A stretch of DNA of 64,000 nucleotides from Clostridia bacterium (GCA_017468385.1 JAFUIQ010000001.1:7335-71334); one strand, 5' to 3'. Shown: positions 9,950 through 55,634, counted from the stretch's first letter. The notes: generated by a model not told the origin, from the sequence alone. Translations and numbers: made by a program.

Positions 9950-9963
9950 CCGAAATAGAGTTT

Positions 9964-11880: not shown

Positions 11881-12042
11881 ACGCGAACAAGCAACGCATG
11901 CCGCATTATTATCGATAAAAACAGACGCATACAATCTCCTTGATCAAATATCCGATCTATAACTATATTATAACACGCACGCCGGCACAAACAATATCCG
12001 CAAAGTTGTTCGAAATTCAACCGGAAATAGAGTCCCGCCATC

Positions 12043-12074
12043 AAAAAACGCCATCAAGTTCCCATTGATGGCGT
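12043..12074 (-). terminator. Terminator after the GerA-family gene
   Basis: ACGCCATCAA-(7 nt)-TTGATGGCGT with a T-run on the minus strand (AAAAAA at 12043-12048 on the plus strand). Confidence 0.6.
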
Positions 12075-12083
12075 TTATCTATT

Positions 12084-13511: not shown

Positions 13512-13572
13512 AAAATCAGCTCCCGTCTGTTTTCATACTATAAAAAGTATGAGCCGGGAGCTGTCATTTTAT

Positions 13573-14694
13573 TCAGTTTTTCGGCTTGAAGAATTGATAG
13601 AACAGGCACGGCAGCATGCCGTTGTACAGTTTGCGGACTTTATCCGCACGGCGGCCGTACAGCCGCTCAAATTCTTCGTTGGGGGTCAGGATATAGATCT
13701 GCCACCGTCCCAGACGGGAAAAGGCCCGTCCCATATCCCGGTACAACTGCACCGCCTCCTCCTGGGTCATCAGCCGCTCGCCGTAAGGCGGATTGGTAAC
13801 GATCGTGCCGCGGCGTCCGTCTGCGGTAATATCCAGCGCATTGGCCTGAGAGCAATGGACGTGGCCCTCCACCCCGGCGCGCTTGGCGGATTCCGTGGCG
13901 ATACGGACACACTCGGGATCGATATCCGAGGCATGCACCTCAAAGGTGCTGTCCCGCAGGATACGGTCGCGGGCTTCCTCACGGGCAGATTGCCACAGTA
14001 AGGTGTCAAAGGCGGGAAAACTCTCCGCGGCAAAGGTACGGGAGATGCCCGGTGCTATGCGGAGCATCTGCATGGCGGCTTCGATGGCGATGGTGCCCGA
14101 TCCGCAGAAGGGATCACAAAACAGCACATCCTCCCTTGGGCGGGAGAAGGCGGCCAGCGCCGCGGCCAGTGTTTCTCTCAACGGTGCCGCTACGGTTTCG
14201 GGGCGGTATCCCCGCTTATGGAGCGGCACGCCGGAGGTATCGATCATCAGCGAAGCGGAATCCTTCAGGATGAAGAACTCCACCTGGTATTTGATGCCCG
14301 TTTCCGGCATCTGCGTCATTCCATAGGCATTGCCCAGTCGCTTGGCGATGGCTTTTTTGACGATCTTCTGGCAATCGGGGATGGAATATAGAGCGCTTTT
14401 GATGGCATGGCCTTTAACGGGAAACGCATCCACTCGGCCAATATACTCTTCCCAGGGCAAGTCGATGGTGCCGTCAAACAACTCCTCGAAGGAGGATGCG
14501 TGGAAGGTCCCCAGATTGATATATACCCGCTCCGCATAGCGCAGGCCGATATTGGCGCGGGCGCACGCCGCCGCATCTCCCTCAAAGGTGACACGGCCGT
14601 CGATGGTGGACAGACGTTTATATCCCAGCGCGTCTATTTCCGCACCCAGCAGTGCTTCCAGGCCAAACAAACAAGTGGCTGTATAGGTAATCAT
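13573..14694 (-). CDS. THUMP-domain class I SAM-dependent RNA methyltransferase (RlmL/YpsC-like)
   Basis: MITYTATCLFGLEALLGAEI.. (N-terminal ferredoxin-like/THUMP region), DPFCGSGTIAIEAA (SAM motif I), NPPYGERL (motif IV). Confidence 0.85.
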   Translation of the reverse strand: MITYTATCLFGLEALLGAEIDALGYKRLSTIDGRVTFEGDAAACARANIGLRYAERVYINLGTFHASSFEELFDGTIDLPWEEYIGRVDAFPVKGHAIKSALYSIPDCQKIVKKAIAKRLGNAYGMTQMPETGIKYQVEFFILKDSASLMIDTSGVPLHKRGYRPETVAAPLRETLAAALAAFSRPREDVLFCDPFCGSGTIAIEAAMQMLRIAPGISRTFAAESFPAFDTLLWQSAREEARDRILRDSTFEVHASDIDPECVRIATESAKRAGVEGHVHCSQANALDITADGRRGTIVTNPPYGERLMTQEEAVQLYRDMGRAFSRLGRWQIYILTPNEEFERLYGRRADKVRKLYNGMLPCLFYQFFKPKN

Positions 14695-16232: not shown

Positions 16233-16307
16233 ATTCTGCCTCCACGGAAAATCACAAGCAGGGGCGGACTCCGTCACCGGAAGCCGTCCCTGCTTTCCTC
16301 ATTCATT

Positions 16308-16997
16308 TTACTGAAGCAATTCGAACTTATATCCTACGCCCCAGACGGTCTTCAGTGTCCACTTATCGGACACGCCCTCCAGCTTCTCGCGCAGACGCTT
16401 GACGTGTACATCTACGGTGCGGGAGTCGCCCAGATAGTCAAAGCCCCAGACCTTATCCAGCAGCTGATCACGGGTAAATACATGATCGAAATTGGATGCC
16501 AGGAAATACAGAAGCTCCAATTCCTTGGGGGGGATATCCACCGGCTTGCCGCGCAGTCTGAGCTCGTACTTCTGACGGCTGATCTCGATATTGTCAAACT
16601 TAATGACTTCGTCATCGTTCTGATTCATATGGGCAGAATAGCGGCGAAGAACCGCTTTCACGCGGGCAGACAGTTCCTTCATATCGAAGGGCTTGACCAC
16701 AAAGTCATCCGCGCCCAGCTCCAGGCCCAGCACCTTATCGAACACCTCACCCTTGGCAGTGATCATGATCACCGGTTTGGAGGACATCTCGCGGATCTCG
16801 CGGCACACGGCCCAACCGTCCTTCTTCGGCAGCATAATGTCCAGAAGAACCAGATCCGGCTCATACATTTTGAAATAGCTGATGCCTTCCACGCCGTCGT
16901 TGGCTGTTTTTACTTCGTAGTTCTCATTTTCAAAATACAACCGCAGTAAGTCGCAGATATTGACATCGTCGTCCACAACAAGAATCTTCGTTCCCAT
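16308..16997 (-). CDS. OmpR-family response regulator
   Basis: MGTKILVVDDDVNICDLLRLYF..DLVLLDIMLPKKDGW..ITAKGE..DDFVVKPF plus winged helix ..TRDQLLDKVWGFDYLGDSRTVDVHVKRLREKL. Confidence 0.9.
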   Translation of the reverse strand: MGTKILVVDDDVNICDLLRLYFENENYEVKTANDGVEGISYFKMYEPDLVLLDIMLPKKDGWAVCREIREMSSKPVIMITAKGEVFDKVLGLELGADDFVVKPFDMKELSARVKAVLRRYSAHMNQNDDEVIKFDNIEISRQKYELRLRGKPVDIPPKELELLYFLASNFDHVFTRDQLLDKVWGFDYLGDSRTVDVHVKRLREKLEGVSDKWTLKTVWGVGYKFELLQ

Positions 16998-17363
16998 AAT
17001 CCGTTTCTCCTTCAAAAGTGATTTATTTGAATATGTATTGATTTTGTAGTTCATACATCAATAGTATACCACCGAAAAAATGAAAAGTAAACACTTTTTT
17101 CCAATCCCAATGAATATTCCCGGGGAAAGGCCCGCCACTTTACGCCATTAGTATACCAATCCAAAGTGACCGTTTTGTGAAATCGGTGTGATTGATGCAT
17201 AAATTCATCATGAAAAAGCGAAAATTTTCCTTTTCCAAAAGCATTTCAATTTATTTGACGTACAATCTCTTGTAAAGTTCGCAGAAATATTGTATAATAG
17301 TATAGATTTTTCGAAGAAACTGCGTTGGAAAGGACTTCCCTTTGGGGAATTTGCAATTACATT

Positions 17364-37656: not shown

Positions 37657-39186
37657 ATGTATACAAACAACTCGATGTATCTCGGCCTTGCCGATGAGCG
37701 CGTATGCCTGCCGCTGGGACAAGCCAACCGCCACGGCTTGATTGCCGGTGCCAGCGGTACGGGTAAAACCATCACCATGAAGGTGATGGCGGAATCCTTT
37801 TCCGATGCGGGTGTCCCTGTTTTTCTTTGCGATGTGAAAGGGGACGTATCCGGTCTGGCACAGGCCGGTGAGGACAACGCCGGTATGCAGAAACGCATCG
37901 ACAAATTCGGCATCCGTGACACCTTCACCTACAAACCCTATCCGGTGACGTTTTGGGATCTGTACGGCAAATTCGGACATCCTGTCCGCGCCACGGTTTC
38001 GGACATGGGACCTTCCCTGCTGGCGCGGATCTGCAGTTTGACGGAGATCCAGGAAGGTATTCTGCATATTGCGTTCCGCGTGGCCGATGACAAGGGCTTG
38101 ATCCTCACCGATCTGAAGGATCTGCGCGCCATCCTGAACCACATAAATGACCGGAAGAAAGAATACATTCCTCAGTACGGAAATATCACCACGCAAAGCG
38201 TGGGGGCTATTCTCCGCGCGCTTCTGGTTCTGGAAAATGAAGGCGCCGATCGTTTTTTCGGCGAGCCCGCACTGGATATTGCCGACTGGCTCCGCACCGA
38301 TGCGGACGGACGCGGCATGATCCACATTCTGGACAGCCGCACACTGATCTCCACCCCCAAACTGTATGCCACATTCCTTCTGTGGATGATGGCGGAGCTG
38401 TTTGAAACCTTGCCGGAGGTAGGCGATCCGGAGAAGCCTAAGCTGGTGTTCTTCTTTGATGAGGCACATCTCCTCTTTAACGATGCCCCCAAGGCTCTCC
38501 TCCAGAAAATCGAGCAGACGGTCAAGCTGATCCGCTCCAAAGGTGTGGGCATTTATTTTGTCACACAGAATCCTTCGGATATTCCCGATGCGGTGCTGGC
38601 ACAGTTGAGCAATCGTATTCTGCACGGTCTTCGTGCCTACACGCCCAGTGAGTTGAAGGCGGTGCGTGCCGCCGCCCAGTCGTTCCGCCAGAATCCAGCC
38701 TTTGACACGCAAGAGGCCATCTTGTCCGTGGGAACCGGCGAAGCGGTAGTATCCCTGCTCAATGAAAAAGGTGTGCCTACCATCGCACAGAAAACGGCTA
38801 TTCTCTGCCCCCAGAGCCTTATGGCACCTTGCAGTGAATCCGTTCGTACACAGTGTCTGGAAAAGGACGGTATGGCAAAATACGACACAGCCATTGATCC
38901 GGAATCCGCTTACGAAGTGTTGGCGGAGGAAGCTGCTCTGCAGGCGGAAAAAGACGCACTGGAAGCCGAACGGGAAGCGATTCGCCGTGAGCGGGAAGAG
39001 TTGGAAAAGCAGAAGCAGAAGGAAGAAGAAAAGCGAATCAAGCAGATAGAAAAGGAACAGGAGCGTCAGCGGATCGCCGCCGAGAAAAAGGTCCAGAAGC
39101 GGCGGGAACGGATCGAATCCCAGATCATTTCAACCGGCGGTGCTCTTCTGCGGCGCGGTCTTTTGAACATACTGAAGAGAAGATAA
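37657..39186 (+). CDS. HerA-like P-loop ATPase (DUF853/YjgR family) with C-terminal coiled-coil
   Basis: ..NRHGLIAGASGTGKTITMKVMAE (Walker A)..KLVFFFDEAHLLF (Walker B)..GVGIYFVTQNPSDIP... The tail is Glu/Lys/Arg-rich: ..REREELEKQKQKEEEKRIKQIEKEQERQR... Confidence 0.85.
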   Translation: MYTNNSMYLGLADERVCLPLGQANRHGLIAGASGTGKTITMKVMAESFSDAGVPVFLCDVKGDVSGLAQAGEDNAGMQKRIDKFGIRDTFTYKPYPVTFWDLYGKFGHPVRATVSDMGPSLLARICSLTEIQEGILHIAFRVADDKGLILTDLKDLRAILNHINDRKKEYIPQYGNITTQSVGAILRALLVLENEGADRFFGEPALDIADWLRTDADGRGMIHILDSRTLISTPKLYATFLLWMMAELFETLPEVGDPEKPKLVFFFDEAHLLFNDAPKALLQKIEQTVKLIRSKGVGIYFVTQNPSDIPDAVLAQLSNRILHGLRAYTPSELKAVRAAAQSFRQNPAFDTQEAILSVGTGEAVVSLLNEKGVPTIAQKTAILCPQSLMAPCSESVRTQCLEKDGMAKYDTAIDPESAYEVLAEEAALQAEKDALEAEREAIRREREELEKQKQKEEEKRIKQIEKEQERQRIAAEKKVQKRRERIESQIISTGGALLRRGLLNILKRR

Positions 39187-44955: not shown

Positions 44956-46944
44956 TTATGGAATAAAATCGGGTACCAGACCGCGGACAAATGCGCCGGT
45001 GGAGGCAGCCGGTTGGCCATCCGCAAAGTAAACATACACGCCGTAGTAGGAATCCAACAGGGTAAACACGGTGCTTCCCTGCGCAAAGTAGGTAGACTCG
45101 CAAATCGCACGGATGCTGTCCGCATCCTCATATTTTGTGATCTCGCCGGTTTCGTTATTCATCACGTAGATATAGGAAATGGTGTTGACCAAAGCACGCC
45201 ACTCATTGTCCGTGATATCGTATACGGGATACACATAGGTGGGATACCACTGATCATCCTGTGCGCCGCGGCAGCTCAGGGACAAGAACGTCCCCCGCTG
45301 GAAGTAATCCATTCCGTTATATCCGGCCCGCATGGCGCGGAGCCGCTCCGGATAGCCCTTTTCGTTCCAGACATCCATTTGATCGTTCCGTATGTGATTC
45401 ACGCTGGTGATACGCACATTAACATCCGAGGGCACAAGGTCGAAATAAGCATCCGCAAATTCTTCAGCATCCGCAAGAGCGGTGAGCAGTTTTGCGCCCT
45501 CCTCTCCTGTATACGCCGGATAGATGGTTATGGACTTTTCATAGATAAAGCCAAGCCGTGTGACAAACCGGATATTCATGTAGCAGAATGAATTGCTGAC
45601 ACTCTTGTAGGAATAGACCATCTCGTCCGTTTCATGCGTTACCGACTCTATGCGCTCTTTTTCGATGATCTCGATGGCGCTGACACTGCGGTAACTTTCC
45701 CTTGTAGGATTGGCCTTGATGTATTCCCGCACCGCGTCGCTCAGGTTCTCGATATCTTCCCGGTCTTCCATGCGGAACGTGGTATCGCCGGTCGTTACGG
45801 TGATGTACTTGATACCGGCGGCATGGGGAACGTACCCGTCCATGCCCACCAGATCCACTCCGAACAGCACAAAGACTGCCAGAAACACTCCGCAGAATGC
45901 GCCGAATCCGGGAAGGCCTCGGAACATCTGCTTGGCCGATTTGGTCAGGATGGTGTTGATGAGCATCATGCACAGAAGTGCCCCGATCAGAGCACCGCAA
46001 ATGAACCAGCCGTCGCCGCCGGCGATGGCCTCAAAGAAGATACCGCCGACCACCGCGCCGCAGAACATGCAGGCATATTTAATCACCGCCGAAGCGACTT
46101 TGGAAATCACGGGAGTACCGCTCAATTCACTCTTGCGGAAACGGTAGATCAGCAGACCCAGCACCCAGAACGCCAATCCCACAACGAGCGCAAGGATCAA
46201 TTCCCCAAGCACGTTTTCACTTTCCTCTACAGCCACCATCAGCGTACGCGCGGGCAAAAAGATTTTTAACGCCAATTCCGTCGCCCATGTATGGACGGAA
46301 TACACCGCATTGTAGCTCCAGATATACGTCAGACACAATACGATCGCCGACGGAAGAAAGACGACCAATCCCGCGTTCATGATGCGGGCGAAGGCGGTGC
46401 CGGTAAAGGAGGCGGCGAACACCATAATACAGAAGTACAGAAGGAAATATATAACGGAACAGATCAGTCCGCTCAGTTGGATACCAATCACGGACAGATT
46501 CCATTCCCGGTGAACGCCCATGATGATCACAGACAGTCCCACCGACAAACACATGGGAATCAGATAGCAAAGGAATTTTGCCAGGGATTCGCTTATGTAC
46601 AAAGAGATGCGGGTTTTGGGGATACTGTGATAAAACTGGATATTGGTTTTGGAGTTGAGATAACTCATACAGCCGCATCCCCACACCACAGCCAGACAGG
46701 AGGACACCAGAATGTTGATGGCACGCATGACGCGGGCGAACTCCTGCATGGAGCGGATCATGCTCTCGCGGGTGGAAAACATGGCTTCCGTTTCGGTGAT
46801 ATCCATGTACAATGTAATGACATTCAAAAGCACCAATATCACCGCATTGGTAATCAGCACGGGCCAATTCTGCTTCAACAAAAACGCAAAATAACTGCGT
46901 GATGACGCGTTTCTTCTTTTAGGCGAGGATGTCGTGGAAGTCAT
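44956..46944 (-). CDS. ABC-2-type multi-TM permease-like protein with a roughly 260 aa C-terminal soluble domain
   Basis: MTSTTSSPKRRNASSRSYFAFLLKQNWPVLITNAVILVLL.. followed by many TM helices to about residue 400, then a hydrophilic domain (..YITVTTGDTTFRMEDREDIENL..). It overlaps the upstream ATPase gene by 26 nt, with GGAGGAG 7 nt before the ATG at 46944. Confidence 0.65.
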   Translation of the reverse strand: MTSTTSSPKRRNASSRSYFAFLLKQNWPVLITNAVILVLLNVITLYMDITETEAMFSTRESMIRSMQEFARVMRAINILVSSCLAVVWGCGCMSYLNSKTNIQFYHSIPKTRISLYISESLAKFLCYLIPMCLSVGLSVIIMGVHREWNLSVIGIQLSGLICSVIYFLLYFCIMVFAASFTGTAFARIMNAGLVVFLPSAIVLCLTYIWSYNAVYSVHTWATELALKIFLPARTLMVAVEESENVLGELILALVVGLAFWVLGLLIYRFRKSELSGTPVISKVASAVIKYACMFCGAVVGGIFFEAIAGGDGWFICGALIGALLCMMLINTILTKSAKQMFRGLPGFGAFCGVFLAVFVLFGVDLVGMDGYVPHAAGIKYITVTTGDTTFRMEDREDIENLSDAVREYIKANPTRESYRSVSAIEIIEKERIESVTHETDEMVYSYKSVSNSFCYMNIRFVTRLGFIYEKSITIYPAYTGEEGAKLLTALADAEEFADAYFDLVPSDVNVRITSVNHIRNDQMDVWNEKGYPERLRAMRAGYNGMDYFQRGTFLSLSCRGAQDDQWYPTYVYPVYDITDNEWRALVNTISYIYVMNNETGEITKYEDADSIRAICESTYFAQGSTVFTLLDSYYGVYVYFADGQPAASTGAFVRGLVPDFIP

Positions 46945-47818
46945 ACCCATTCTCCTCCATTTCCGATATAAATATCTCCTCCAAGGTGAGAGGAATACAC
47001 TCGCAGAACTGCGGATGCATCTTTTGCAGTTCATTCTCCAATTCGTCGCGGGTACCGCGGGCAACGATGGTGTACATACTGCCCCGGCGTTCCAGATTGA
47101 GCAGCGGCAATGTGCGCAGTTTTTCCTCCGCACACTCGTCGGTGAACACCGCCTGAATCTTCTGGATATTCAGTTTCATATCGTCCAGCTCCCTCTGGAA
47201 CAGAAGCGTTCCTTTATGAAGCAAAGCGATATGGTCGCACACATCCTCCAACTCCCTGAGGTTGTGGGATGCGATCACCACGGTAGTTCCCCGCTCGGCA
47301 ATATCATCCATGAGGATCCGCTTTACCAGATGGCGCATAACCGGATCCAGCCCGTCAAAGGTTTCATCGCAGAACAGATACTTGGGACAAACCGACAATC
47401 CGAGCAGCACAGAGGTCTGCTTCTGCATGCCTTTGGAAAAGGTGTTGATCTTCCGATGCTCCGGCAGGCCCAGCACCTTCAGAAGCTGCTCAAATTTCGT
47501 ATCGCTGAAGGTGGGATACAGACTGCGGTACAGATCCCGCATTTCCCCGATGGAGGAATGGGGGAGAAAAAAGGGCTCATCCGACAAATACACCAGTTTG
47601 GCTTTCTGCTCCGTGTTCTCCCAGATGTTGAATCCGTCGTATAAAACATATCCCTTATCCAAAGCGAAAATTCCGCTCATTGCGCGCAGCAGCGTGGACT
47701 TGCCCGATCCGTTGGACCCGATCAAACCGAAGATCGATCCGTCCGGAATGCGCATAGTCACCGCGTCCAGACTGCACACATCCGAAAAATATTTGGTAGC
47801 CGATTCTATTTTAATCAT
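46919..47818 (-). CDS. ABC transporter ATP-binding protein (ABC-2/YtrB type)
   Basis: GSNGSGKSTLL (Walker A), FSKGMQKQTSVLL (signature-like), YLFCDETFDGLD (Walker B), ASHN (H-loop). The ATG lies 1 nt after the GntR stop. Confidence 0.9.
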   Translation of the reverse strand: MIKIESATKYFSDVCSLDAVTMRIPDGSIFGLIGSNGSGKSTLLRAMSGIFALDKGYVLYDGFNIWENTEQKAKLVYLSDEPFFLPHSSIGEMRDLYRSLYPTFSDTKFEQLLKVLGLPEHRKINTFSKGMQKQTSVLLGLSVCPKYLFCDETFDGLDPVMRHLVKRILMDDIAERGTTVVIASHNLRELEDVCDHIALLHKGTLLFQRELDDMKLNIQKIQAVFTDECAEEKLRTLPLLNLERRGSMYTIVARGTRDELENELQKMHPQFCECIPLTLEEIFISEMEENGYDFHDILA

Positions 47819-47819
47819 T

Positions 47820-48221
47820 CTACTCTGTCTCCTTTCCGGTATCCGGTTCTGCCGCCTGCCAGATGGCTGCGGCACACTCCAAAAATTCCTCCCGCGTCAT
47901 GTGCAAGGTCCGCGCCTTGGAGGCAAGGATCGTCATCTCCGCCCGCAGGGATTCCTTCCCCGCTGAGGCGATCTCACTGCCATCCAGGATCACGATACTG
48001 CCCCGGCCGGACAAAGAAGCGATAATTCCCTGCCGCTCCAATTCCGCATAGGCTTTCTGGATGGTATTGGGATTGATGCCCAACTCCTTGGCCAACGTAC
48101 GCACGGAGGGCAGGAAGTCATTCTTCTTAAGATCTCCCCGCAGAACCAACATTTTCACATTGTCGATCAACTGCTCATAAATCAGTTTCCGATCGCGGTA
48201 ATCAATTGTGATTAAACCCAC
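47820..48221 (-). CDS. GntR-family transcriptional regulator (short YtrA subfamily)
   Basis: ..IYEQLIDNVKMLVLRGDLKKNDFLPSVRTLAKELGINPNTIQKAYAELERQGIIASLSGRGSIV. At 133 aa it is YtrA-like and heads an ABC operon. GTG start. Confidence 0.88.
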   Translation of the reverse strand: MGLITIDYRDRKLIYEQLIDNVKMLVLRGDLKKNDFLPSVRTLAKELGINPNTIQKAYAELERQGIIASLSGRGSIVILDGSEIASAGKESLRAEMTILASKARTLHMTREEFLECAAAIWQAAEPDTGKETE

Positions 48222-48389
48222 TTTCTCACCGTCCCAACTGTATTATCTGTAGTAGTACAGTTAGATTATAGCATCCTGCCAACCGCCTGTCAAGCCGTTT
48301 TACGGATAATTCACAAATATTTTCCGTCAATGCCTTGTAAATTGTTTTTGGTTTCGGTATAATATAGAAAATATCTTTGGAGGTATACT

Positions 48390-48710
48390 ATGAATTCCAT
48401 TCTTCTTGAAGCGACTACTACGCCCAGTTCTATGGCAGGTCTGTCCACCATTCTGATGGTTGTTATTACCCTTGCTGTCATGTATTTCTTCTTAATCAGA
48501 CCGCAGAAAAAGCAGGAAAAAGAAACCGCCAACATGCTGGACAATCTGGCAGTCGGCGATGAGATCACCACCATCGGCGGTGTGATCGGCGAGATCGTAT
48601 CCATCACCGGTGAGACCGTTGTTGTGGCTACCAGCCGCGATCAGACGAAGATCCGCTTCCGCAAAACCGCCATCAAGAGCGTTGACGTTCACGCCAACGA
48701 AAAACCCTGA
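48390..48710 (+). CDS. yajC: Preprotein translocase subunit YajC
   Basis: ..ILMVVITLAVMYFFLIRPQKKQEKETANMLDNLAVGDEITTIGGVIGEIVSI... GGAGG SD. Confidence 0.88.
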   Translation: MNSILLEATTTPSSMAGLSTILMVVITLAVMYFFLIRPQKKQEKETANMLDNLAVGDEITTIGGVIGEIVSITGETVVVATSRDQTKIRFRKTAIKSVDVHANEKP

Positions 48711-48783
48711 TCTGTCATACCATCCCCATCCTTCGAATATGTTTGTACCACAGATTTGTGTCAAACTGTTCGGAGGATTTCGT

Positions 48784-49224
48784 ATGACTAAACATTCCAT
48801 CAAAAGCGGGCCTGCGGGAGCCTTGCGCCCCTGCGCCCTTTCTCTGCCCATATCCTTGGCGGCGGCCATGATTCTGCTGCTCCTGTCGGCCGCCATCGCC
48901 TATGCACAGCCGGATCCGGCCACACTGGCCCGGCCGCTGTCTGTAGTGTGCTTGTATCTATCGGCCCTTTTGTGCGGTATTCTTTCCGCCAAACGATCCG
49001 ATACGCCCATTCTGTCGGGCGTAATCGGCGGCGGGGGGATGGTTCTCGTCCTCCTGCTGCTGTCTTTGCTCCCCTATAGCGCATCTCCATCCGCCCTCTC
49101 CCCTCTCACCGCGATTCTCATGCATGTCGGCGTCATCGCTGTTTCTGCCGGCGGCGCATTTATCGCCATGAAGAAGCCGAAACGGCACGCCATGAAACGG
49201 GGGATAAAACGGCGCAAACATTGA
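48784..49224 (+). CDS. Small 4-TM membrane protein (TIGR04086-like)
   Basis: MTKHSIKSGPAGALRPCALSLPISLAAAMILLLLSAAIAY..VVCLYLSALLCGILSAK..ILSGVIGGGGMVLVLLLLSLL..ILMHVGVIAVSAGGAFIAMKKP. GGAGG SD. The position after yajC fits that family as I recall it. Confidence 0.5.
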   Translation: MTKHSIKSGPAGALRPCALSLPISLAAAMILLLLSAAIAYAQPDPATLARPLSVVCLYLSALLCGILSAKRSDTPILSGVIGGGGMVLVLLLLSLLPYSASPSALSPLTAILMHVGVIAVSAGGAFIAMKKPKRHAMKRGIKRRKH

Positions 49225-49239
49225 TCAGGAATATAAATT

Positions 49240-49893
49240 ATGATACACATATTCAAACTGAACGGGCATAGAATTGCCTATGACTGCACCCGACGGGTGA
49301 GTTATTCCCTGTCCGCTTTGGCGATAAAGATCGCGGAGGCGGTCCATCCCCCCCTGAGCGAGGAATGTCCGTCGTCGCTCCGCTACGCTTTTGCGAAATA
49401 CGACAGCCACGATCTGAGCGAGGCTTATCAAGAGGTATATGCTTTGGCGAAGCGGGGATTGTTTGACACCACAGCGGGGGATGCCCCCGCTGCAGCCGGA
49501 AATCCGTCAGCAGCAGATGATGCATGTTACGTTACAGTCCCCCCGTCCCTTCCACTCGGTGAAGCGGTTCTGGAGCTGGCGGAGCGCGGCGTCCGCTATA
49601 TCCATGCGGATATTCCCCCTGCCACCGATCCGAAGGAACTGATCCGCTTGGCCAAGGATCTGGAAAAAATGCGGGACGGCGGAAACGAGATCCACTTTGC
49701 TCCCTTTGTGTCTGCCATGGAGGTGGATGACCGCGCGGAAATCCCGGATGCGTGCCGCCACTGCTGGGCGCAGGAAATCTGCCGCGGACGCGCGCTGTGC
49801 GATGGTGAGAATCCGATGGCGCGCTGCGATCTGGTAAGGACATGTATCGAGTGCGGCATTGTACTATATTGCGAACCGAAAAAAATCGTCTGA
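49240..49893 (+). CDS. SCIFF-maturase-like protein lacking the radical-SAM core (RRE-like N-terminus plus C-terminal Cys cluster)
   Basis: MIHIFKLNGHRIAYDCTRRVSYSLSALAIKI..EAYQEVYALAKRGLFDT resembles the N-terminus of SCIFF maturases (TIGR03974, from memory). The C-terminal CRHCWAQEICRGRALCDGENPMARCDLVRTCIECGIVLYC resembles the end of a SPASM domain. There is no CxxxCxxC anywhere in the 217 aa. Confidence 0.55.
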   Translation: MIHIFKLNGHRIAYDCTRRVSYSLSALAIKIAEAVHPPLSEECPSSLRYAFAKYDSHDLSEAYQEVYALAKRGLFDTTAGDAPAAAGNPSAADDACYVTVPPSLPLGEAVLELAERGVRYIHADIPPATDPKELIRLAKDLEKMRDGGNEIHFAPFVSAMEVDDRAEIPDACRHCWAQEICRGRALCDGENPMARCDLVRTCIECGIVLYCEPKKIV

Positions 49894-49912
49894 TACAATC
49901 AGACGATTTTTT
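49879..49912. terminator. Bidirectional terminator between the convergent scfB-like and GTPase-NYN genes
   Basis: AAAAAAATCGTCTGAT-aca-ATCAGACGATTTTTT. Confidence 0.65.
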
Positions 49913-49913
49913 G

Positions 49914-52481
49914 TTATTTCAGGCTGTCACCGATGGTGCCGAAGGGCTGCTCCTGCAGATCGTTGAGGATGGCCGTGATCTTCTCATTCACGTCGTTCAC
50001 CTCCCGGGCGAATTCAGCGGCGGACATACGGAGCACGCCAAAGCGGACAGCGGACAACTGAATCAGTCCGTCAGAGGTAACCACGCGAACGTTTTCGTTT
50101 TTGCCGATCTGGGCGATGAGTTTTTCGATATACACGTCCCCCAGCTCCCGCTCCTTGGTGTAGACCACATGAATGTTCTGATAATCGAACCGCTTGCCGG
50201 GATTTCCGGCCACCTTGTACGCGTCGAACACCAGCACTACATTGTACTTGGTGAAGGCGCAATAGTTTGACAGAATCCGCATCAGCTCGCCCCGGGCCTT
50301 TTCCAGATCTGTTTCGGCGATGGCATGCAGATCCTCCCAGGCGAAAATCACATTATATCCGTCCACGATCAGCCATTGCTTTTTGGGCGGACTGGACTCT
50401 TCCTCCCGTCCCCGCTCGTTTCCGTAGATCACGGGCGGTTTGTAGGACGGCCGCTTGATGGGGCCGAACTCCCGCATCATAATGGCTTCCAGCTCCTTCT
50501 CATCCAGGTGCAGATTGCGATGGATGAGCCGAGGCGGAATCTCCGTCTCTTCCGCTTTCAGACAACTTTCCAGATGCATATATTCCGTTACCTGATCCCA
50601 TTTGACGGTGAATCCGCCGCCGTGGGCACAGAAAACGGAATCCGGTGTGTTTTCCACATCGCACAGCGGATCGTAGGCGTAGCGGGCAATCACTTCGTCT
50701 GCGTTGTGGCAGACGTCATAGCCGTCCGTTTCGTAACTCAATCGTCCCCGTCCTTTGGTATAGGATGCCACGACGGCGGCGTAATCGTTCATGGCGGTGA
50801 CGGGTGCCCGTCCGCGCAAAAGAACCATATCGCCGGCTTCCTCCATGGGCTCAATGGTGCCGAACCGGCTTCGTATATCGTGGATGGCATGGCCGATCTG
50901 CTCCCGAGGCAATTCCAGACGGAAGCGGTAGTATGGCTCCAGCAAAACGGATTTCGCCTGCATCAGTCCGTGGCGCACGGCCCGATAGGTCGCCTGGCGG
51001 AAGTCACCGCCCTCCGTATGCTTGATGTGAGCGCGGCCCGCCGCCAACGTAATCCGCATATCCGTCACGGGGGATCCGGTGAGCGTGCCGATGTGCTGTT
51101 TCTCCGCCAGGTGCGTCAGCACCAGCCTCTGCCAATTGCGCTCCAGGGCATTCTCACTGCACAGAGAGCGGAACACCAGCCCGCTTCCCCGAGGCAGCGG
51201 CTCCATTACCAGATGGACCTCTGCATAGTGGCGCAGTGGCTCGTAATGCCCCACGCCTTCCACGGCAGCATCGATGGTCTCTTTATACAGCACTTCACCC
51301 GAATCGATCTCCACCGATACATCGAATCGGTCCATAATAAGACTTTTCAGAATCTCCGCCTGCACTTCTCCCATCAGTTCCACATGGATCTGCTGGAGGT
51401 AGGTATTCCACGTGATGCGGAGCTGGGGATCCTCCTCCTCGAGCTGCCGCAGTTTGGGGAGCATAGTTTGGGGATCACATTCCTCCGGCAGGACAATGCG
51501 GTATTTCATGATCGGCTCCAGCACCGGCGAGGCGGATGCGGCCTCCGTGCCGATTCCCTGCCCGTTGCGGGTGGATTCCAGCCCCACCACACAGCACACA
51601 TCCCCCGCTGTGATCTCATCGCTGGTGGTATATTTTGCGCCGGAGTAGATTCGTATCTGGGTAATCTTGGCGGCGTCTTTGCCGTCCGCCAGGCTGTCCC
51701 GCACCCGCAAAGTGCCGCCGGTCACCTTCAGATGGGTCAGGCGGGTACCCGATTCATCGTAGGTGATTTTGAACACCTTGGCGCCGAAAGCATCCGCATA
51801 TTTCTTTTGAGCGGTATACCGCTCCATACCGGCGAGGAATTCCTCCACGCCCTCCAGCCTCAAGCCCGATCCGAAATAACAGGGGAAAATTTCCCGCTCG
51901 CAGATCAGATCCGAAATATCCGCGTCGTCCACCTGCCCGGTAAGCAGATAGTTCTCCAGTATATCCTCGCGGCACATGGCGATGCGCTCATTCCGCTTTT
52001 CCGCCCCGTCGGGGCAGAAGTCCACGCAGCCGTCATCCAGCTCCTTTTGGAGCTCCGCCATCAATTCGTCCTTGGTACGGCGAGCGAAATCCATCTTGGT
52101 GACAAACAGAAACACGGGGATGTGATACAGCCGCAAGAGCCGCCACAGGGTGCGGGTGTGGGACTGGACGCCGTCGATGCCGCTGATGACCAGTATGGCG
52201 TAATCCAGCACCTGCAGAATCCGCTCCGTCTCAGCGGAGAAATCAATATGGCCGGGGGTATCCAGCAAGGTAACGGACAAATCCCCATAGGTGAACACGG
52301 CCTGGCTGGCAAAGATGGTGATGCCCCGCTCCCGCTCCAGATCGTGGGTATCCAGCATGGTATTCCGGTGGTCTACCCGTCCCAGCTTCCGCGTCTTTCC
52401 CGTGGTATACAATATGGATTCCGCCAATGTGGTTTTTCCCGCATCCACATGGGCCAATATGCCAACGACTGCTTTCTTCAT
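49914..52481 (-). CDS. Translational GTPase (EF-G/Tet(M)-like) fused to a C-terminal YacP/Rae1-type NYN domain
   Basis: MKKAVVGILAHVDAGKTTLAE (G1), RGITI (G2), DTPGH (G3), TKMD (G4), then EF-G-like domains to about residue 640. The last 165 aa read ..QWLIVDGYNVIFAWEDL..VVLVFDAYKVAG..VVYTKERELGDVYIEKL..VVTSDGLIQ..SAAEFAREV, which is YacP-like. GAGGA 5 nt before the ATG at 52481. Confidence 0.85.
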   Translation of the reverse strand: MKKAVVGILAHVDAGKTTLAESILYTTGKTRKLGRVDHRNTMLDTHDLERERGITIFASQAVFTYGDLSVTLLDTPGHIDFSAETERILQVLDYAILVISGIDGVQSHTRTLWRLLRLYHIPVFLFVTKMDFARRTKDELMAELQKELDDGCVDFCPDGAEKRNERIAMCREDILENYLLTGQVDDADISDLICEREIFPCYFGSGLRLEGVEEFLAGMERYTAQKKYADAFGAKVFKITYDESGTRLTHLKVTGGTLRVRDSLADGKDAAKITQIRIYSGAKYTTSDEITAGDVCCVVGLESTRNGQGIGTEAASASPVLEPIMKYRIVLPEECDPQTMLPKLRQLEEEDPQLRITWNTYLQQIHVELMGEVQAEILKSLIMDRFDVSVEIDSGEVLYKETIDAAVEGVGHYEPLRHYAEVHLVMEPLPRGSGLVFRSLCSENALERNWQRLVLTHLAEKQHIGTLTGSPVTDMRITLAAGRAHIKHTEGGDFRQATYRAVRHGLMQAKSVLLEPYYRFRLELPREQIGHAIHDIRSRFGTIEPMEEAGDMVLLRGRAPVTAMNDYAAVVASYTKGRGRLSYETDGYDVCHNADEVIARYAYDPLCDVENTPDSVFCAHGGGFTVKWDQVTEYMHLESCLKAEETEIPPRLIHRNLHLDEKELEAIMMREFGPIKRPSYKPPVIYGNERGREEESSPPKKQWLIVDGYNVIFAWEDLHAIAETDLEKARGELMRILSNYCAFTKYNVVLVFDAYKVAGNPGKRFDYQNIHVVYTKERELGDVYIEKLIAQIGKNENVRVVTSDGLIQLSAVRFGVLRMSAAEFAREVNDVNEKITAILNDLQEQPFGTIGDSLK

Positions 52482-52687
52482 CGATTCCTCATCCCGCCGC
52501 TGTGGGCGTGCCTTTTCGCTCATAATCACTACTATTATAGCAAAACTCATCCCGTTTGTAAATACGGTCCGGTTTTCTAAAACCTCGTTTGAAGCATTTA
52601 CTTTTCCATAATTATATGGTATAATGTATTTTGTATACGAATGTTCATTTTTACAGATCAAATCGGAGCGGAGGAAGTACACACCGT

Positions 52688-52897
52688 ATGATTTCAATCC
52701 CGAAGATTGCTGTGGGGGATTTGCTGGAAATGAAGAAGCCCCACCCCTGCGGAAACAAGACATTCCAGGTGCTTCGCATCGGATCGGATGTGCGGATTCA
52801 GTGCGCCGGATGCGGCCGCGATCTGACGCTGGAACGTATAAAACTGGAAAAATCCATCAAAAAAATCATCTCCTCGGAGGAAAGCCATGCAGAATGA
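52688..52897 (+). CDS. DUF951-family small protein
   Basis: MISIPKIAVGDLLEMKKPHPCGNKTFQVLRIGSDVRIQCAGCGRDLTLERIKLEKSIKKI has the Cys4 pattern and size typical of DUF951. GGAGGAAG SD. Confidence 0.7.
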   Translation: MISIPKIAVGDLLEMKKPHPCGNKTFQVLRIGSDVRIQCAGCGRDLTLERIKLEKSIKKIISSEESHAE

Positions 52898-55634
52898 AGA
52901 AAACATGTCCCTGCCTGCGGACAATCCCTGCCCCCAGGTGCATGAGGATATCCCTGCCGAAAAGAAAAAAGCCTCCTTTTGGGAGAAGTTTTCCTCTGTG
53001 AAATACCTGCTCTGGTGCTTCTTTTTGCCGGCGGCACTGATGTGGGTGATCTACATCGCCATGAATGTGTATCCCTTCGGGGAGGAATCCGTTCTGGTAC
53101 TGGATCTGAACGGACAGTATGTGTATTATTTTGAGGCCCTGCGGCGGCTTCTGCACGGGGAAGGCAGTTTTCTCTACTCCTTTGGCCGGGCGCTGGGCGG
53201 TGAGTTCCTCGGCATCGTTGCCTATTATCTGGCCAGCCCCTTCTCGTTCATTGTGGGGCTTTTCCCCAAGGCCATGATCACCGAAGCACTGCTGACGATG
53301 TTCCTTCTGAAAACCGGCCTGTGCGGCTTGCACTTCGGCATCTATCTCCACAAAACCCGGGATCGGAATCCCGTTGCCGTGGTGATCTTCTCCACCATGT
53401 ACGCGCTGTGCGCTTATGCGGTGGTACAGCAGCACAACACCATGTGGATCGACAATCTGATCTTCCTGCCGCTGATTCTTTTGGGTATTGAGGAAATGAT
53501 CCGCTTCGGCAAGTACAAGCTGTTTGTGGTTTGTCTGTCCCTGGCCGTGTTCAGCAATTACTACATCGGCTACATGATGTGCATTTTTGTGGCGGTGTAT
53601 TTCTTCTATTACTATTTCAGCCGGACACCTGATGAGAGAAATCCCCATGGCGTCCAGCATCACTTCCTTCGTTCCTTTGGACGGATTGCGTTCTATTCCC
53701 TGCTTGTGATCTGCATCTGCGCCGCGATCCTTCTGCCCGCTTACTATTCGCTGACCTTCGGTAAGACCACCTTCTCCGATCCGTCCTTTGCTCTGACGCA
53801 GAAGTTTGATTTTCTGGACATGCTGTCCAAGATGTATTTCGGCTCCTACGACACGGTACGTCCGGAGGGACTTCCCTTCCTCTACTGCGGTATGCTGACG
53901 TTCATTCTGGTGCCGCTGTACTTCTTCGCGCCCCATATCCGCCTTCGCGAGAAAATTGCTACCGGTTTTCTGGTGATCTTCTTTGTGATCGGCTTCAACG
54001 CCAGCACGCTGGATTTGATCTGGCACGGCTTCCAGCGTCCCAACTGGCTGAATTACCGGCAGAGCTTCATGCTGTGCTTTATCTTCCTGATCATGGCCTA
54101 CAAGGCCTTCGAGGGACTGAAGACCATGGGATTCCGCTATGCTGTTGCTTCCACCGGTGTTATTGCAGGTCTTCTCATTATCATGCAGAAGATCGGATAC
54201 AAGAATCTGCCCGATTTCACTGCCGTGTGGCCGTCGCTGATCTTCTGTGCTCTCTATCTGTTCCTGCTGCGCGCCTGCACCATGGACAGCAAAAACACCC
54301 GGCAGACCGCCGCGCTGGTTATGGCTATCCTTGTATCGCTGGAGATGTTCTGCGCAGGACTGGCCAACACCACCGCCATGGATAAGGATGTAATCTACTC
54401 CAGCCGCACCTCCTACCGTTCCTTTATCGATCGGGTGCAGCCCATCGCGGACGATGTGAAGGAGATGGACGATTCCTTCTACCGCATGGAAAAGACGGTA
54501 CACCGCAAGACCAACGACAATCTGTCGCTGGGCATGCGCGGACTGTCTAACTCCACCTCCACATTGAACGCCAAGGTAGTTGCGCTGCTCAAGGGAATGG
54601 GTATGGCATCCAAATCCCACTGGTCCAAGTATGTGGGCAGCACGCCGGTACTGGATTCCCTGATGAACGTGAAGTACGTAATCGCCGAGGACGCGGGCAC
54701 CGTGTCCCCGCTTTACCACGAGATCCTGCGGGACGAGGAGAACACGCTGTCCGTCTATGAGAATCCCTATGTTCTCTCCCTGGCCTTCGGTGTATCCCCG
54801 GACACGGCGGATTTCCTGTTCGATGACACCCGCTTCGATTCTCCTTTTGTTCGTATGAATCATCTGATCACCGCCCTGCTGGGCGAGGATGAGACCGTGG
54901 AAATCTTCCGGGAAGCCAAAGTCATCGATACCGAATATATCAACTGTTCCTCCTCCTCTGTGGCGGGACACCGCAAATACACTCCCAAGGATTCCTCCAC
55001 CTCCGCCACGCTCCGCTATACGGTGCGGGTGGACAGCGGTGATCTGCTGTACTGCTACATCCCCTCGGAATATCCCCGAGAGGTAGAACTGAAAGTCAAC
55101 AACAAGAGTGTGGGCAAGCACATGGGCAATGAGACCCACGCCGTCAAGTCCCTTGGCACCTTTGAGGTAGGCGATGAGATCACCGTATCGGCTACCCTGC
55201 AGGACAAGGATCTGTATATTACCACCGGCGCCTCCTATTTCTACTACTTCGATGAGGCGGCGTATAAAGACGCCATGGCACGTCTGAGCACATCCCAGTA
55301 CGTGATTAAGGAGTACACCGAGGATTCCTTCACCGGAACAATCCACGTGGCGGCAGGCCAGGAGATGATCTACACCTCCATCCCCTACGATGCGGGCTGG
55401 GTAGTGAAGATCGACGGTGCCATCGTGGAAACGGAAGAAATCGTCGGTGCGCTGATGGGATTCCGCACCACCCCCGGTGAGCACACGCTGGAAATGGAAT
55501 ACCGTCCCGCCTGTGTGACGTACGGCACATGGATCAGCGCGGGAGGATTGTCCGTCTTTGCGGTGATCTGCCTTGGTGAATGGCTTAATCGAAAAAAGAA
55601 ACAAAAATCCATCGATGTGAGGTCTGAGATATGA
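52887..55634 (+). CDS. YfhO-family membrane protein (putative glycosyl-transfer/lipid-linked sugar flippase family)
   Basis: ..NVYPFGEESVLVLDLNGQYVYYFEALRRLLHGEGSFLYSFGRALGGEFLGIVAYYLASPFSFIV.. followed by many TM helices and a large C-terminal extracytoplasmic domain. 915 aa. Confidence 0.88.
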   Translation: MQNEENMSLPADNPCPQVHEDIPAEKKKASFWEKFSSVKYLLWCFFLPAALMWVIYIAMNVYPFGEESVLVLDLNGQYVYYFEALRRLLHGEGSFLYSFGRALGGEFLGIVAYYLASPFSFIVGLFPKAMITEALLTMFLLKTGLCGLHFGIYLHKTRDRNPVAVVIFSTMYALCAYAVVQQHNTMWIDNLIFLPLILLGIEEMIRFGKYKLFVVCLSLAVFSNYYIGYMMCIFVAVYFFYYYFSRTPDERNPHGVQHHFLRSFGRIAFYSLLVICICAAILLPAYYSLTFGKTTFSDPSFALTQKFDFLDMLSKMYFGSYDTVRPEGLPFLYCGMLTFILVPLYFFAPHIRLREKIATGFLVIFFVIGFNASTLDLIWHGFQRPNWLNYRQSFMLCFIFLIMAYKAFEGLKTMGFRYAVASTGVIAGLLIIMQKIGYKNLPDFTAVWPSLIFCALYLFLLRACTMDSKNTRQTAALVMAILVSLEMFCAGLANTTAMDKDVIYSSRTSYRSFIDRVQPIADDVKEMDDSFYRMEKTVHRKTNDNLSLGMRGLSNSTSTLNAKVVALLKGMGMASKSHWSKYVGSTPVLDSLMNVKYVIAEDAGTVSPLYHEILRDEENTLSVYENPYVLSLAFGVSPDTADFLFDDTRFDSPFVRMNHLITALLGEDETVEIFREAKVIDTEYINCSSSSVAGHRKYTPKDSSTSATLRYTVRVDSGDLLYCYIPSEYPREVELKVNNKSVGKHMGNETHAVKSLGTFEVGDEITVSATLQDKDLYITTGASYFYYFDEAAYKDAMARLSTSQYVIKEYTEDSFTGTIHVAAGQEMIYTSIPYDAGWVVKIDGAIVETEEIVGALMGFRTTPGEHTLEMEYRPACVTYGTWISAGGLSVFAVICLGEWLNRKKKQKSIDVRSEI

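Follow-up and report, generated by a model that had tools for sequence, protein, structure and literature searches.

A translational GTPase fused to a Rae1-type NYN nuclease in Clostridia, with a possible role on stalled ribosomes

We analysed a 64,000-nt stretch of DNA from a Clostridia bacterium (GCA_017468385.1, JAFUIQ010000001.1:7335-71334; hereafter the window), in which a single minus-strand gene encodes a translational GTPase (trGTPase) joined to an NYN ribonuclease domain. A sequence-only reading had described an uninterrupted ORF of 855 codons at this locus, and translation yielded exactly this product, followed by a stop codon. The gene, its expression signals and the predicted segments of its protein are listed below.

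52534..52562, minus strand: sigma-70-type promoter, TTTACA-17-TGcTATAAT, 11/12 matches, with the -10 box at 52534-52539
52486..52490, minus strand: Shine-Dalgarno sequence GAGGA, 4 nt before the ATG at 52481, by direct sequence reading
49914..52481, minus strand: complete CDS of the trGTPase-NYN fusion protein, 855 aa plus stop, uninterrupted translation
51813..52469, minus strand: G domain, residues 5-223 (Pfam GTP_EFTU, 6.6e-47)
51561..51782, minus strand: domain II, residues 234-307 (Pfam EF-G_D2, 2.8e-07)
51306..51518, minus strand: domain III, residues 322-392 (Pfam EFG_III, 6.4e-07)
50952..51299, minus strand: domain IV, residues 395-510 (Pfam EFG_IV, 2.4e-18)
50703..50948, minus strand: domain V, residues 512-593 (Pfam EFG_C, 1.8e-19)
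50547..50702, minus strand: small domain, residues 594-645 (alignments; AlphaFold2 pLDDT ~76-80)
50373..50546, minus strand: tether, residues 646-703, mostly disordered (AlphaFold2 and length variation in the family)
49917..50372, minus strand: Rae1/YacP-type NYN endoribonuclease domain, residues 704-855, core 704-843 (Pfam NYN_YacP, 2e-42)
49880..49912, no strand assigned: bidirectional intrinsic terminator, a 15-bp hairpin between an A run and a T run

An alternative, longer ORF extends to 52763; the ATG at 52481 was taken as the start because the promoter, the GAGGA ribosome-binding site and the N-termini of homologues agree. The terminator is common to the fusion gene and a convergent ORF at 49240-49893. 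Window positions 48000-54000, in which a tet(M)-like leader RNA or attenuator was sought, gave no Rfam match at E <= 1. As predicted from these signals, the interval is one intact gene with its own promoter and terminator, transcribed as a monocistronic unit.

The fusion itself is already known. It was described by Atkinson in 2015 (PMC4342817) and by Matelska in 2017 (PMC5499597), the window copy is 98% identical to public proteins of 855 aa, and the novelty implied by the sequence-only reading was accordingly overstated. Its remark that no experimental characterisation was known holds, as our literature search found neither a functional study nor an experimental characterisation of the fusion.

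At 50% identity, the proteins with this architecture fall into more than 150 clusters, from Oscillospirales, Lachnospirales (Agathobacter rectalis) and Monoglobales. Among the representatives, the best 150 are all fusion-length proteins or fragments thereof, and 137 of them retain the exact DGYN motif. Genomes of 139 GTDB species carry the fusion, and A. rectalis and Monoglobus pectinilyticus are represented by isolates. Candidates for natural split forms, with separate GTPase and NYN genes, were rejected, since the inspected representatives of 616-719 aa end at contig edges or seem frameshifted. An assembly artefact or decayed gene, in which two neighbouring genes had become joined, is refuted by the recurrence of the 830-1000-aa architecture in hundreds to thousands of independent assemblies, cultured isolates included, and by the strong conservation of both halves and of the junction region; we found no support for it and give it virtually no credence. 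By these comparisons the fusion is assessed as a large and old family, spread over several orders of Clostridia, in which the joining of the two modules appears obligatory.

Residues 5-593 are predicted to form a translational GTPase of the EF-G/Tet clade in five domains; G1-G4, the catalytic His and domains II-V of the EF-G/EF2 clade are all present, and the top Foldseek matches are all EF-G (E = 1e-51). The G motifs reported previously were all recovered, namely G1 AHVDAGKTT, G2 RGITI, G3 DTPGH with the catalytic His78, and G4 TKMD. Across 22 close and 32 diverse homologues, D13, G15, K16 and T17 of G1, the whole of DTPGH, and K129 and D131 of G4 are invariant, with slight variation at H11, A14 and the first G4 position. 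EF-G-like domains had been thought to continue to about residue 640, but the Pfam domains stop at 593. The tip of domain IV carries two family-specific loops, GVGH(Y/F)EPLRHYAEVH (409-423) and GRAHxKHTEGGDFR (482-495), which are near-invariant in homologue alignments even at 40% overall identity.

The module shares with EF-G its fold, the G motifs and the domain-IV histidine, H485 aligning with H573 of Thermus thermophilus EF-G. It differs from EF-G in loop I of domain IV, which is 4 residues shorter and lacks GGRGQ, and in an extra C-terminal extension of 260 aa; scores against the EF-G models lie below their cut-offs (277 vs 659 and 329 vs 583 for TIGR00484 / NF009381).

The five-domain EF-G-like architecture is also that of Tet(M) and Tet(O), and a previous phylogenomic study assigned the fusion to the Tet subfamily (PMC4342817). 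Atkinson 2015 suggested, and an NCBI annotation name conveys, that the protein is a tetracycline ribosomal protection protein with an acquired accessory RNase. The best full-length PDB matches agree with this (Tet(O), 255 bits; Tet(M), 237 bits), as do the best NCBIfam model, tet_protect, and the label 'TetM/TetW/TetO/TetS family' that PGAP gives to several members. However, the tet_protect score (NF012153) is 419.2 against a cut-off of 775, and the specific Tet models all fall far below theirs (TetM/W/O/S, 293.9 vs 1100; Tet(M), 228.6 vs 1420). Domains IV-V alone score 79 bits with EF-G, 61 with Tet(O) and 55 with Tet(M). In Tet(M), loop III of domain IV (L505-Y-Y-S508-P509-V510-S) displaces tetracycline and is functionally key (PMC4750697); this segment, L505-YYSPVS, aligns without gaps with R483-AHIKHT of the fusion, and the replacement sequence AHIKHT is near-invariant in the fusion family. 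The Tet proteins are of ~640 aa and end in a short C-terminal helix, whereas here the alignment with Tet(M)/Tet(O) stops at residue 589-591, the short Tet(M) helix is absent, and an extension of ~260 residues stands in its place. The gene is, moreover, chromosomal and without mobile-element context, and related genomes of the two subclades examined have its neighbours in common, which fits vertical inheritance. A resistance function is thus very unlikely; judged on its sequence, the fusion is not a tetracycline-resistance determinant and a resistance annotation is unwarranted, in line with the caution against automatic naming voiced in the sequence-only reading.

Beyond the GTPase, AlphaFold2 models residues 594-645 as a helix, a beta-hairpin and two helices, and a Pfam search matched this segment to no family. 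Its Cys/His-rich signature, CHN...DSVFCxHGxG..V.W...MH, is strong in close relatives; among 32 diverse homologues C591 is kept in 25, C618 in 26, H620 in 23 and H636 in 28, while Y603, S615, F617 and G621 are invariant in the alignments of the small domain. A zinc site was considered and rejected, as C640 lacks conservation and the remaining positions are retained in only 23-28 of the 32 diverse members; no metal site is claimed.

In the tether that follows, disordered segments at 644-660 and 673-698 (AlphaFold2 pLDDT < 50) flank a conserved helix at 661-672 (DEKELEAIMMREFG). The small-domain motif and DGYN lie 92 aa apart in the window protein and 86-169 aa apart in all but 3 of 103 clusters. 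Of the linker proposed earlier, the flexible tether stands for residues 646-703, with its one conserved helix, whereas residues 594-645 proved to be conserved and structured. AlphaFold2 is confident about the individual domains; its overall pTM is 0.49, and the position that it gives the NYN domain relative to the GTPase is unusable.

The C-terminus matches NYN_YacP (PF05991) with 145.4 bits against a gathering score of 24.6, over profile positions 1-142 of 166, and aligns with the crystal-structure sequence of Bacillus subtilis Rae1/YacP (5mq8/5mq9, residues 4-152) with E = 3.5e-20. That an EF-G/Tet-class GTPase and a Rae1-type NYN domain are covalently united, as first read from the DNA, is thereby supported, five GTPase domains and the nuclease domain lying on one chain. 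All four acidic residues of Rae1 are retained in the alignment, as the earlier comparison had indicated: D707, D753, D782 and D804 pair with D7, D53, D81 and D104, and each of them is kept in 22/22 close and 32/32 diverse homologues. The catalytically dead Rae1 variant D7N D81N (PMC10351889) is altered at the equivalents of D707 and D782. The acidic active site of the NYN domain is therefore complete as far as sequence predicts.

Within the NYN_YacP family, Rae1 alone has been characterised, and it cleaves mRNA in a way that depends on translation (PMC10351889, PMC12407103). Its cleavage has been mapped 12 nt upstream of the stalled codon (PMC12407103, 2025), and the enzyme has been placed on collided ribosomes, where it feeds tmRNA (PMC13622287, 2026). 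The A-site cutting on which the sequence-only reading relied derives from a docking model of 2017 and is outdated, as both of these studies put cleavage upstream of stalled or collided ribosomes. The fusion has the NYN_YacP domain and its four conserved acidic residues in common with Rae1, and a ribosome-linked action would be expected of it. The settings differ, however: Rae1 is a free protein of ~170 aa from the mrnC-rlmB-yacP-sigH region, whereas the window protein, rather than a single-domain form next to rlmB/sigH, carries its NYN domain at the C-terminal end of an 855-aa GTPase whose gene lies elsewhere in the chromosome.

In the window, the gene lies among DUF951, yfhO, ruvAB and yajC, and housekeeping neighbours of the fusion gene include ruvAB, yajC and guaA. 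Across 81 loci no family-wide conserved gene partner was found, and the window's own neighbours are shared only with L001, a 97%-identical relative. The order clpC-fusion-metallophosphoesterase recurs in one subclade (13-15 loci) and fusion-mrnC-rqcH in one locus (L018, 1/92 loci); both arrangements are lineage-restricted and therefore too narrow for a functional argument. The genomic context characterises the fusion as a chromosomal, monocistronic and apparently housekeeping gene.

NYN and PIN nucleases are known from defence and toxin systems, and this speaks for an anti-phage or toxin-like device in which the GTPase would sense infected or abnormal ribosomes and the nuclease would abort translation. 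A BrnT/CopG toxin-antitoxin pair adjoins the fusion gene in A. rectalis. Against such a shut-off, neither the whole protein nor its C-terminal 262 aa has a PADLOC-DB match at E <= 0.01, no defence-island context was seen in the window, in loci L081-L086 or in 80 genome loci, and no immunity or antitoxin partner is conserved. Two records labelled 'Bacteriophage sp.' contain the fusion (MT835563.1 and MT835514.1); phage carriage on the strength of MT835563.1 was rejected, as this is an unverified virome contig with cellular genes (NAD(P)H-hydrate dehydratase, citrate transporter). We regard the defence function as highly improbable, and the anti-phage part of the earlier proposal finds no support, the setting of the gene being chromosomal, housekeeping and monocistronic.

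The canonical free-standing gene, as in Clostridioides difficile, lies in the order rlmB-NYN-sigH. In M. pectinilyticus neither rlmB nor sigH has an NYN neighbour, and the sampled ~80% of the genome yields no NYN match besides the fusion, the sample being chromosome fragments mislabelled in a plasmid collection. The rlmB gene of Vescimonas fastidiosa likewise has no NYN neighbour, and no second NYN gene occurs in the window or in 80 related loci, taken with flanks of up to 10 kb on either side. This partial evidence, one ~80%-sampled genome and two locus inspections, suggests that the fusion may replace free-standing Rae1 in the lineages that carry it.

We put at about 0.5 the probability that the fusion is the form of Rae1 used by these lineages, with a GTPase in cis that would target it to ribosomes that have stalled. 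In this model, the GTPase module would dock in the ribosomal factor-binding site and its domain IV would probe the A-site/decoding region, thereby selecting ribosomes that have stalled or collided and whose A site is vacant or abnormal. The NYN domain, on its tether, would then cut mRNA on or beside the selected ribosome. If it acts as Rae1 does, the cut would lie at the stalled ribosome's 5' edge or in the mRNA that separates collided ribosomes, and tmRNA would resolve the truncated mRNA. GTP hydrolysis may time or limit the residence of the nuclease on the ribosome. The domain-IV loops, as a putative purpose-built ribosome probe, are counted for the model, as are the intact catalytic residues, the age and obligatory nature of the fusion, the flexible tether, the housekeeping setting, the possible loss of free Rae1 and the biology of Rae1 itself. 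The unusable NYN placement in the AlphaFold2 model and the lack of a consistent partner in the gene neighbourhood count against it. Because Rae1 cleaves on the mRNA exit side, far from the factor-binding site of the same ribosome, a long tether or action across the disome interface would be needed. Which RNA is cut (mRNA, rRNA or tRNA), which state of the ribosome is recognised and what GTP contributes are points that we infer. The earlier idea of a GTPase-targeted or GTPase-gated nuclease in ribosome quality control survives here as the best hypothesis. A stronger version, in which the fusion has replaced free Rae1 in several orders of Clostridia and GTP binding and hydrolysis by a dedicated EF-G-like sensor licenses mRNA cleavage on stalled or collided ribosomes, is tentative and, in our estimate, rather doubtful.

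The same architecture could instead serve ribosome biogenesis or quality assurance. The GTPase would dock on ribosomes that are immature, idle or damaged, in a translation-like 'test drive', and the NYN domain would cut rRNA or tRNA, either maturing a precursor end or condemning a defective ribosome. Eukaryotes offer a parallel in the PIN nuclease Nob1, which is stimulated by the GTPase eIF5B/Fun12. The mrnC-rlmB-yacP operon led to the first prediction for YacP NYN domains, a part in rRNA/tRNA maturation, the L018 fusion gene is followed by genes for mini-RNase III and RqcH, and the 3' end of 16S rRNA lies near the mRNA exit, where the Rae1 cut site is presumed to be (as derived from PMC12407103). 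Set against this are the translation-dependent cutting of mRNA by Rae1 (PMC10351889, PMC12407103), the confinement of the L018 arrangement to a single one of the 92 loci, and the lack of rRNA operon or assembly-factor synteny in the loci examined. On balance, we consider a role in biogenesis unlikely.

For the proposed rescue of stalled ribosomes by a GTPase-targeted Rae1, eukaryotes again provide a precedent of principle, as the translational GTPase of Hbs1-Dom34 brings its partner to the stalled A site. The fusion probably shares with SmrB of Escherichia coli and with Cue2 and Hbs1-Dom34 of eukaryotes a common logic, in which recognition of a stalled or collided ribosome leads to mRNA cleavage and then to rescue (PMC13622287 and established knowledge). 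The nuclease folds are unrelated, SMR there and NYN here; and whereas sensor, GTPase and nuclease are separate proteins in those systems, GTPase and nuclease form one chain in the fusion.

If the model holds, a large part of the abundant Clostridia of the human and animal gut, among them Oscillospiraceae, Acutalibacteraceae, Agathobacter rectalis and Monoglobus, would rescue stalled ribosomes by means of a single-chain GTPase-nuclease and not by free Rae1. Bacterial ribosome rescue through a nuclease gated by a GTPase would be without characterised precedent. A Rae1-type nuclease tied to the factor-binding site would also offer a handle on how stalled and collided ribosomes are recognised, a question arising from the Rae1 papers of 2025-26, and would constitute a natural experiment on where and how nucleases of this type engage the ribosome.

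Database names for members of the family vary, from 'TetM/TetW/TetO/TetS family tetracycline resistance ribosomal protection protein' and 'translation factor GTPase family protein' to 'NYN domain-containing protein' and 'putative elongation factor G'. Whatever the mechanism, the TetM/TetW/TetO/TetS naming may inflate tetracycline-resistance counts in surveys of the gut resistome.

Translation of the fusion gene gives a single unbroken ORF, and Pfam analysis resolved its product into translation-factor domains followed by a C-terminal nuclease domain:

49914-52481, minus strand: fusion coding sequence, 855 codons plus stop
Residues 5-223: GTP_EFTU (Pfam, 6.6e-47)
Residues 234-307: EF-G_D2 (Pfam)
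Residues 322-392: EFG_III (Pfam)
Residues 395-510: EFG_IV (Pfam)
Residues 512-593: EFG_C (Pfam)
Residues 704-843: NYN_YacP (Pfam, 2e-42; 145 bits against a gathering score of 24.6)

Apart from small shifts of domain boundaries, this confirms the sequence-only reading, which had described an EF-G/Tet(M)-class GTPase joined to a YacP/Rae1-type ribonuclease and had expected a C-terminal NYN_YacP match. Its functional interpretation is borne out in part. The block-for-block likeness to Bacillus subtilis Rae1 that it described also proved correct, the C-terminus matching residues 4-152 of the crystal-structure sequence (5mq8/5mq9) at E = 3.5e-20. We aligned two sets of fusion homologues (22 close; 32 diverse, at 40-54% identity), and D707, D753, D782 and D804 were invariant in both. 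Alignment to Rae1 pairs these residues with D7, D53, D81 and D104, retaining all four catalytic aspartates; the published catalytically dead Rae1 is D7N D81N (PMC10351889). As read from these alignments, the Rae1-type active site of the fusion is intact.

The architecture recurs widely. All 120 best database matches are 838-865 aa long, with 64-98% identity and identical Pfam domains. Scanning one genome per GTDB species revealed a close relative in 139 genomes, the nearest being a Eubacteriales MAG at 97% identity. Judged by record title, nearly all of the 80 loci retained from these 139 are of Oscillospirales type (Acutalibacteraceae, Oscillospiraceae, Vescimonas, Ruminococcus sp. CAG:563/488), while two titles name Bacteroidaceae and Coriobacteriaceae bins. 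Searched exhaustively with a profile, 1.84 billion cluster representatives yielded 2386 matches at E <= 1e-30. The best 150 clusters at 50% identity all score 640-986 bits and, save for shorter fragments, span 830-1156 aa, so more than 150 clusters are fusion proteins; the few shorter representatives inspected end at contig edges or carry apparent frameshifts. Exact DGYN occurs in 137 and exact DTPGH in 147 of these 150 representatives. Full Pfam architecture is likewise present in the cultured Agathobacter rectalis (Lachnospirales; 933 aa) and Monoglobus pectinilyticus (Monoglobales; 862 aa). Identical architecture in numerous genomes, more than 150 clusters and cultured organisms excludes an assembly artefact and bears out a real covalent fusion.

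The fusion is already in the literature: it has been speculated to give a resistance mechanism involving RNase activity (Atkinson 2015; PMC4342817), and TetM-NYN_YacP fusions were noted in some Clostridia with a role called unclear (Matelska et al. 2017; PMC5499597). Our literature search found no experimental work on it, in line with the sequence-only reading. To these descriptions we add how large and widespread the family is, its invariant domain-IV loops and missing Tet motif, a further small domain that is conserved and a tether that varies, the gene's monocistronic housekeeping context, and partial evidence that the fusion takes the place of free Rae1. Rather than a discovery, the fusion is a timely and experimentally accessible lead to the way in which Rae1-type nucleases meet the ribosome.

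The factor-site-class GTPase is intact, with invariant P-loop D13, G15, K16 and T17, switch I T55 region, DTPGH with catalytic His78, and G4 K129 and D131. P-loop H11 and A14 differ in a few diverse homologues, and the first G4 residue is Thr in the window protein's subclade, where most members of the wider family have Asn. The domain IV tip is specialised, its loops GVGH(Y/F)EPLRHYAEVH and GRAHxKHTEGGDFR being family-specific and near-invariant. At full length, the best PDB sequences are near-equidistant (Tet(O) 255 bits, Tet(M) 237, Thermus thermophilus EF-G 236); Foldseek ranks EF-G structures first, and domains IV-V alone favour EF-G (79 bits) over Tet(O) (61) and Tet(M) (55). Curated NCBIfam models all fall far under cut-off (tet_protect 419 versus 775; TetM/W/O/S 294 versus 1100; EF-G 329 versus 583). 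H485 aligns with EF-G H573 (T. thermophilus numbering), whereas domain IV loop I is four residues shorter than in EF-G. In Tet(M), displacement of tetracycline is ascribed to loop III, L505-YYSPVS (PMC4750697); the fusion has an ungapped R-AHIKHT there, and a 260-aa extension replaces the short C-terminal helix of Tet(M). Given the sub-cut-off scores, near-equidistance, EF-G-leaning domains IV-V, lost loop III and C-terminal extension, we treat the GTPase, on sequence grounds, as a separate subfamily inside the EF-G/Tet clade and not as a ribosomal protection protein. Tetracycline protection, second by weight among the rival explanations, runs against both the Tet scores and the replacement of YYSPVS, and the earlier warning against a resistance annotation was well founded.

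Public records (NZ_CP143948.1 from A. rectalis, NZ_OY725736.1, MBQ7938797.1 and P0111) give the family four names: TetM/TetW/TetO/TetS resistance protein, translation factor GTPase family protein, NYN domain-containing protein and putative elongation factor G. The first may yield false tetracycline-resistance calls in gut metagenomes.

Between GTPase and nuclease, a linker of about 60 aa had been proposed. Residues 594-645, which follow domain V and had been counted as linker, are instead strongly conserved (Y603, S615, F617 and G621 invariant in the 22 close and 32 diverse homologues); this stretch matched no Pfam family, and AlphaFold2 models it as a helix, a beta-hairpin and two helices (pLDDT about 76-80; whole-model mean pLDDT 77, pTM 0.49). 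The linker holds farther on, where disordered segments (644-660 and 673-698) are predicted on either side of a conserved helix (661-672). In all but three of 103 representative clusters, 86-169 residues separate the small-domain motif from DGYN (median 112; 92 in the window protein), as would be expected of a flexible tether. Residues 586-645 (window 50547-50726) carry a Cys/His-rich pattern, GYDxCHN...DSVFCxHGxG..V.W...MH, which resembles a metal site in close relatives but is only partly kept in distant ones.

Since the gene has its own promoter and a shared convergent hairpin right after its stop, it is monocistronic:

52562-52534, minus strand: sigma-70-type promoter TTTACA-17-TGcTATAAT, 11/12 matches
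4 nt ahead of the ATG at 52481, minus strand: GAGGA ribosome-binding site
49880-49912: 15-bp hairpin flanked by A and T runs, directly after the fusion stop and serving both convergent genes

The ORF could extend upstream to 52763; promoter, ribosome-binding site and homologue N-termini, which line up with the ATG at 52481, place the start there. An in-frame ATG at 52521-52523 would give 869 aa, the length of MBQ7938797.1, a member of the same 90% cluster as the window protein; it is probably not the start, since only about 11 nt separate it from the -10 box upstream. GC content is 57% in the gene and 53% in the window, and no Rfam leader was found upstream of the gene.

The genomic setting is of housekeeping type. 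Neighbours in the window are a divergent DUF951 gene, yfhO, ruvA, ruvB, yajC, a DUF3792 membrane protein gene and a GntR/ABC transporter set, with guaA, purC, uxaC and radC farther off; two multi-megabase contigs, one bearing a more distant family member, likewise show ordinary chromosomal surroundings. This setting and the lack of a PADLOC match for the fusion argue against defence, third by weight among the rivals, and leave the earlier suggestion of an anti-phage device unsupported.

Two "Bacteriophage sp." records, MT835563.1 and MT835514.1, contain the fusion; we rejected phage carriage via MT835563.1, an unverified virome contig on which genes of cellular metabolism occur. This record and the PLSDB "plasmids" NZ_OY7257xx (Monoglobus) and NZ_CP1497xx (Clostridioides difficile) are evidently chromosome fragments, with markers such as ruvB, rlmB, sigH, tuf, ribosomal protein genes or metabolic genes, and are a trap for mobility inferences.

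Among 81 loci, the window's neighbours recur only in L001, the relative at 97% identity. Clustering flanking ORFs de novo recovered one subclade of 13-15 loci with the order truA-DUF5711-cvpA-pgsA-clpC-fusion-metallophosphoesterase (L043, L048, L050, L052-L054, L058, L062, L063, L067-L069 and L075; about 4300-17000 each). There clpC ends about 50 nt ahead of the fusion on the same strand, making co-transcription possible. One of 92 loci, L018:10001-14769 (Oscillospiraceae MAG SIG496, SVLV01000002.1), has the fusion followed by:

12625-13023, same strand as fusion: mini-RNase III gene (Ribonuclease_3 1.8e-21)
13030-14769, same strand as fusion: RqcH/NFACT ribosome-quality-control gene (NFACT_N 3e-141)

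In Bacillus, clpC lies within the wider chromosomal region that holds yacP, to which mrnC also belongs. The place of mrnC in that region is published (PMC5499597), and the clpC or mrnC adjacency of some fusions could, on this slender evidence, be a remnant of an ancestral yacP position.

Chromosome fragments filed in PLSDB as plasmids served as a genome source for the question of a free Rae1. With the window's tether-plus-NYN region as query, tblastn picks up free Rae1 at 1e-14 to 1e-21 in Bacillus, Listeria, lactobacilli and C. difficile; in the Monoglobus records, which cover about four fifths of the M. pectinilyticus genome by locus-tag numbering, the single NYN location is the fusion. C. 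difficile has the canonical order cysS-mrnC-thyX-rlmB-NYN-sigH-tuf, and M. pectinilyticus has pta-ackA and then sigH, with a metallophosphoesterase after rlmB. An NYN neighbour of rlmB is absent from Vescimonas fastidiosa, and no second NYN gene was found within the window and 80 related loci. This suggests that these lineages may have no Rae1-type protein besides the fusion.

How the fusion might act depends on where Rae1 cuts. In 2017 Rae1 was modelled as docking in the A site (PMC10351889 summarises that model); cleavage has since been mapped 12 nt upstream of the stalled codon (PMC12407103, 2025), which makes the A-site premise of the sequence-only reading outdated. The 2025 study raised collided ribosomes as a possible trigger, and a September 2026 preprint shows Rae1 making tmRNA substrates after collisions (PMC13622287); the GTPase fusion is absent from both. 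We propose that the GTPase module would pick ribosomes whose A site is vacant or abnormal and keep the tethered nuclease nearby; the nuclease would cleave mRNA, tmRNA would clear the product, and GTP hydrolysis would time release. With the revised cut at the stalled ribosome's 5' edge, the tethered domain would have to reach round the 30S or act from the trailing ribosome of a disome. Disome geometry would bring that trailing ribosome's mRNA entry and factor site opposite the mRNA exit of the lead ribosome. The weightiest rival to this mRNA-directed cleavage is an rRNA- or tRNA-directed role in ribosome maturation or disposal, for which Nob1 and eIF5B offer a eukaryotic parallel.

Several minor features lie near fusion genes. 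In A. rectalis, genes for a BrnT toxin and its CopG antitoxin (L085:5429-5937) sit directly upstream on the opposite strand; the pair was not seen at other loci and is probably there by coincidence. In the window, a 217-aa ORF (49240-49893, plus strand) convergent with the fusion has a Cys-rich C-terminus (CRHCWAQEICRGRALCDGENPMARCDLVRTCIECG) and no Pfam match. An apparent operon (44956-48221, minus strand) combines genes for a GntR regulator and an ABC ATPase with one for a polytopic membrane protein of 725 aa, for which Pfam gave no family. About 11 kb from the fusion, a 509-aa protein (37657-39183, plus strand) gives only weak matches, all far below cut-offs, to HerA/VirB4/CedD-type DNA-translocating ATPases, and might mark a mobile or defence element.
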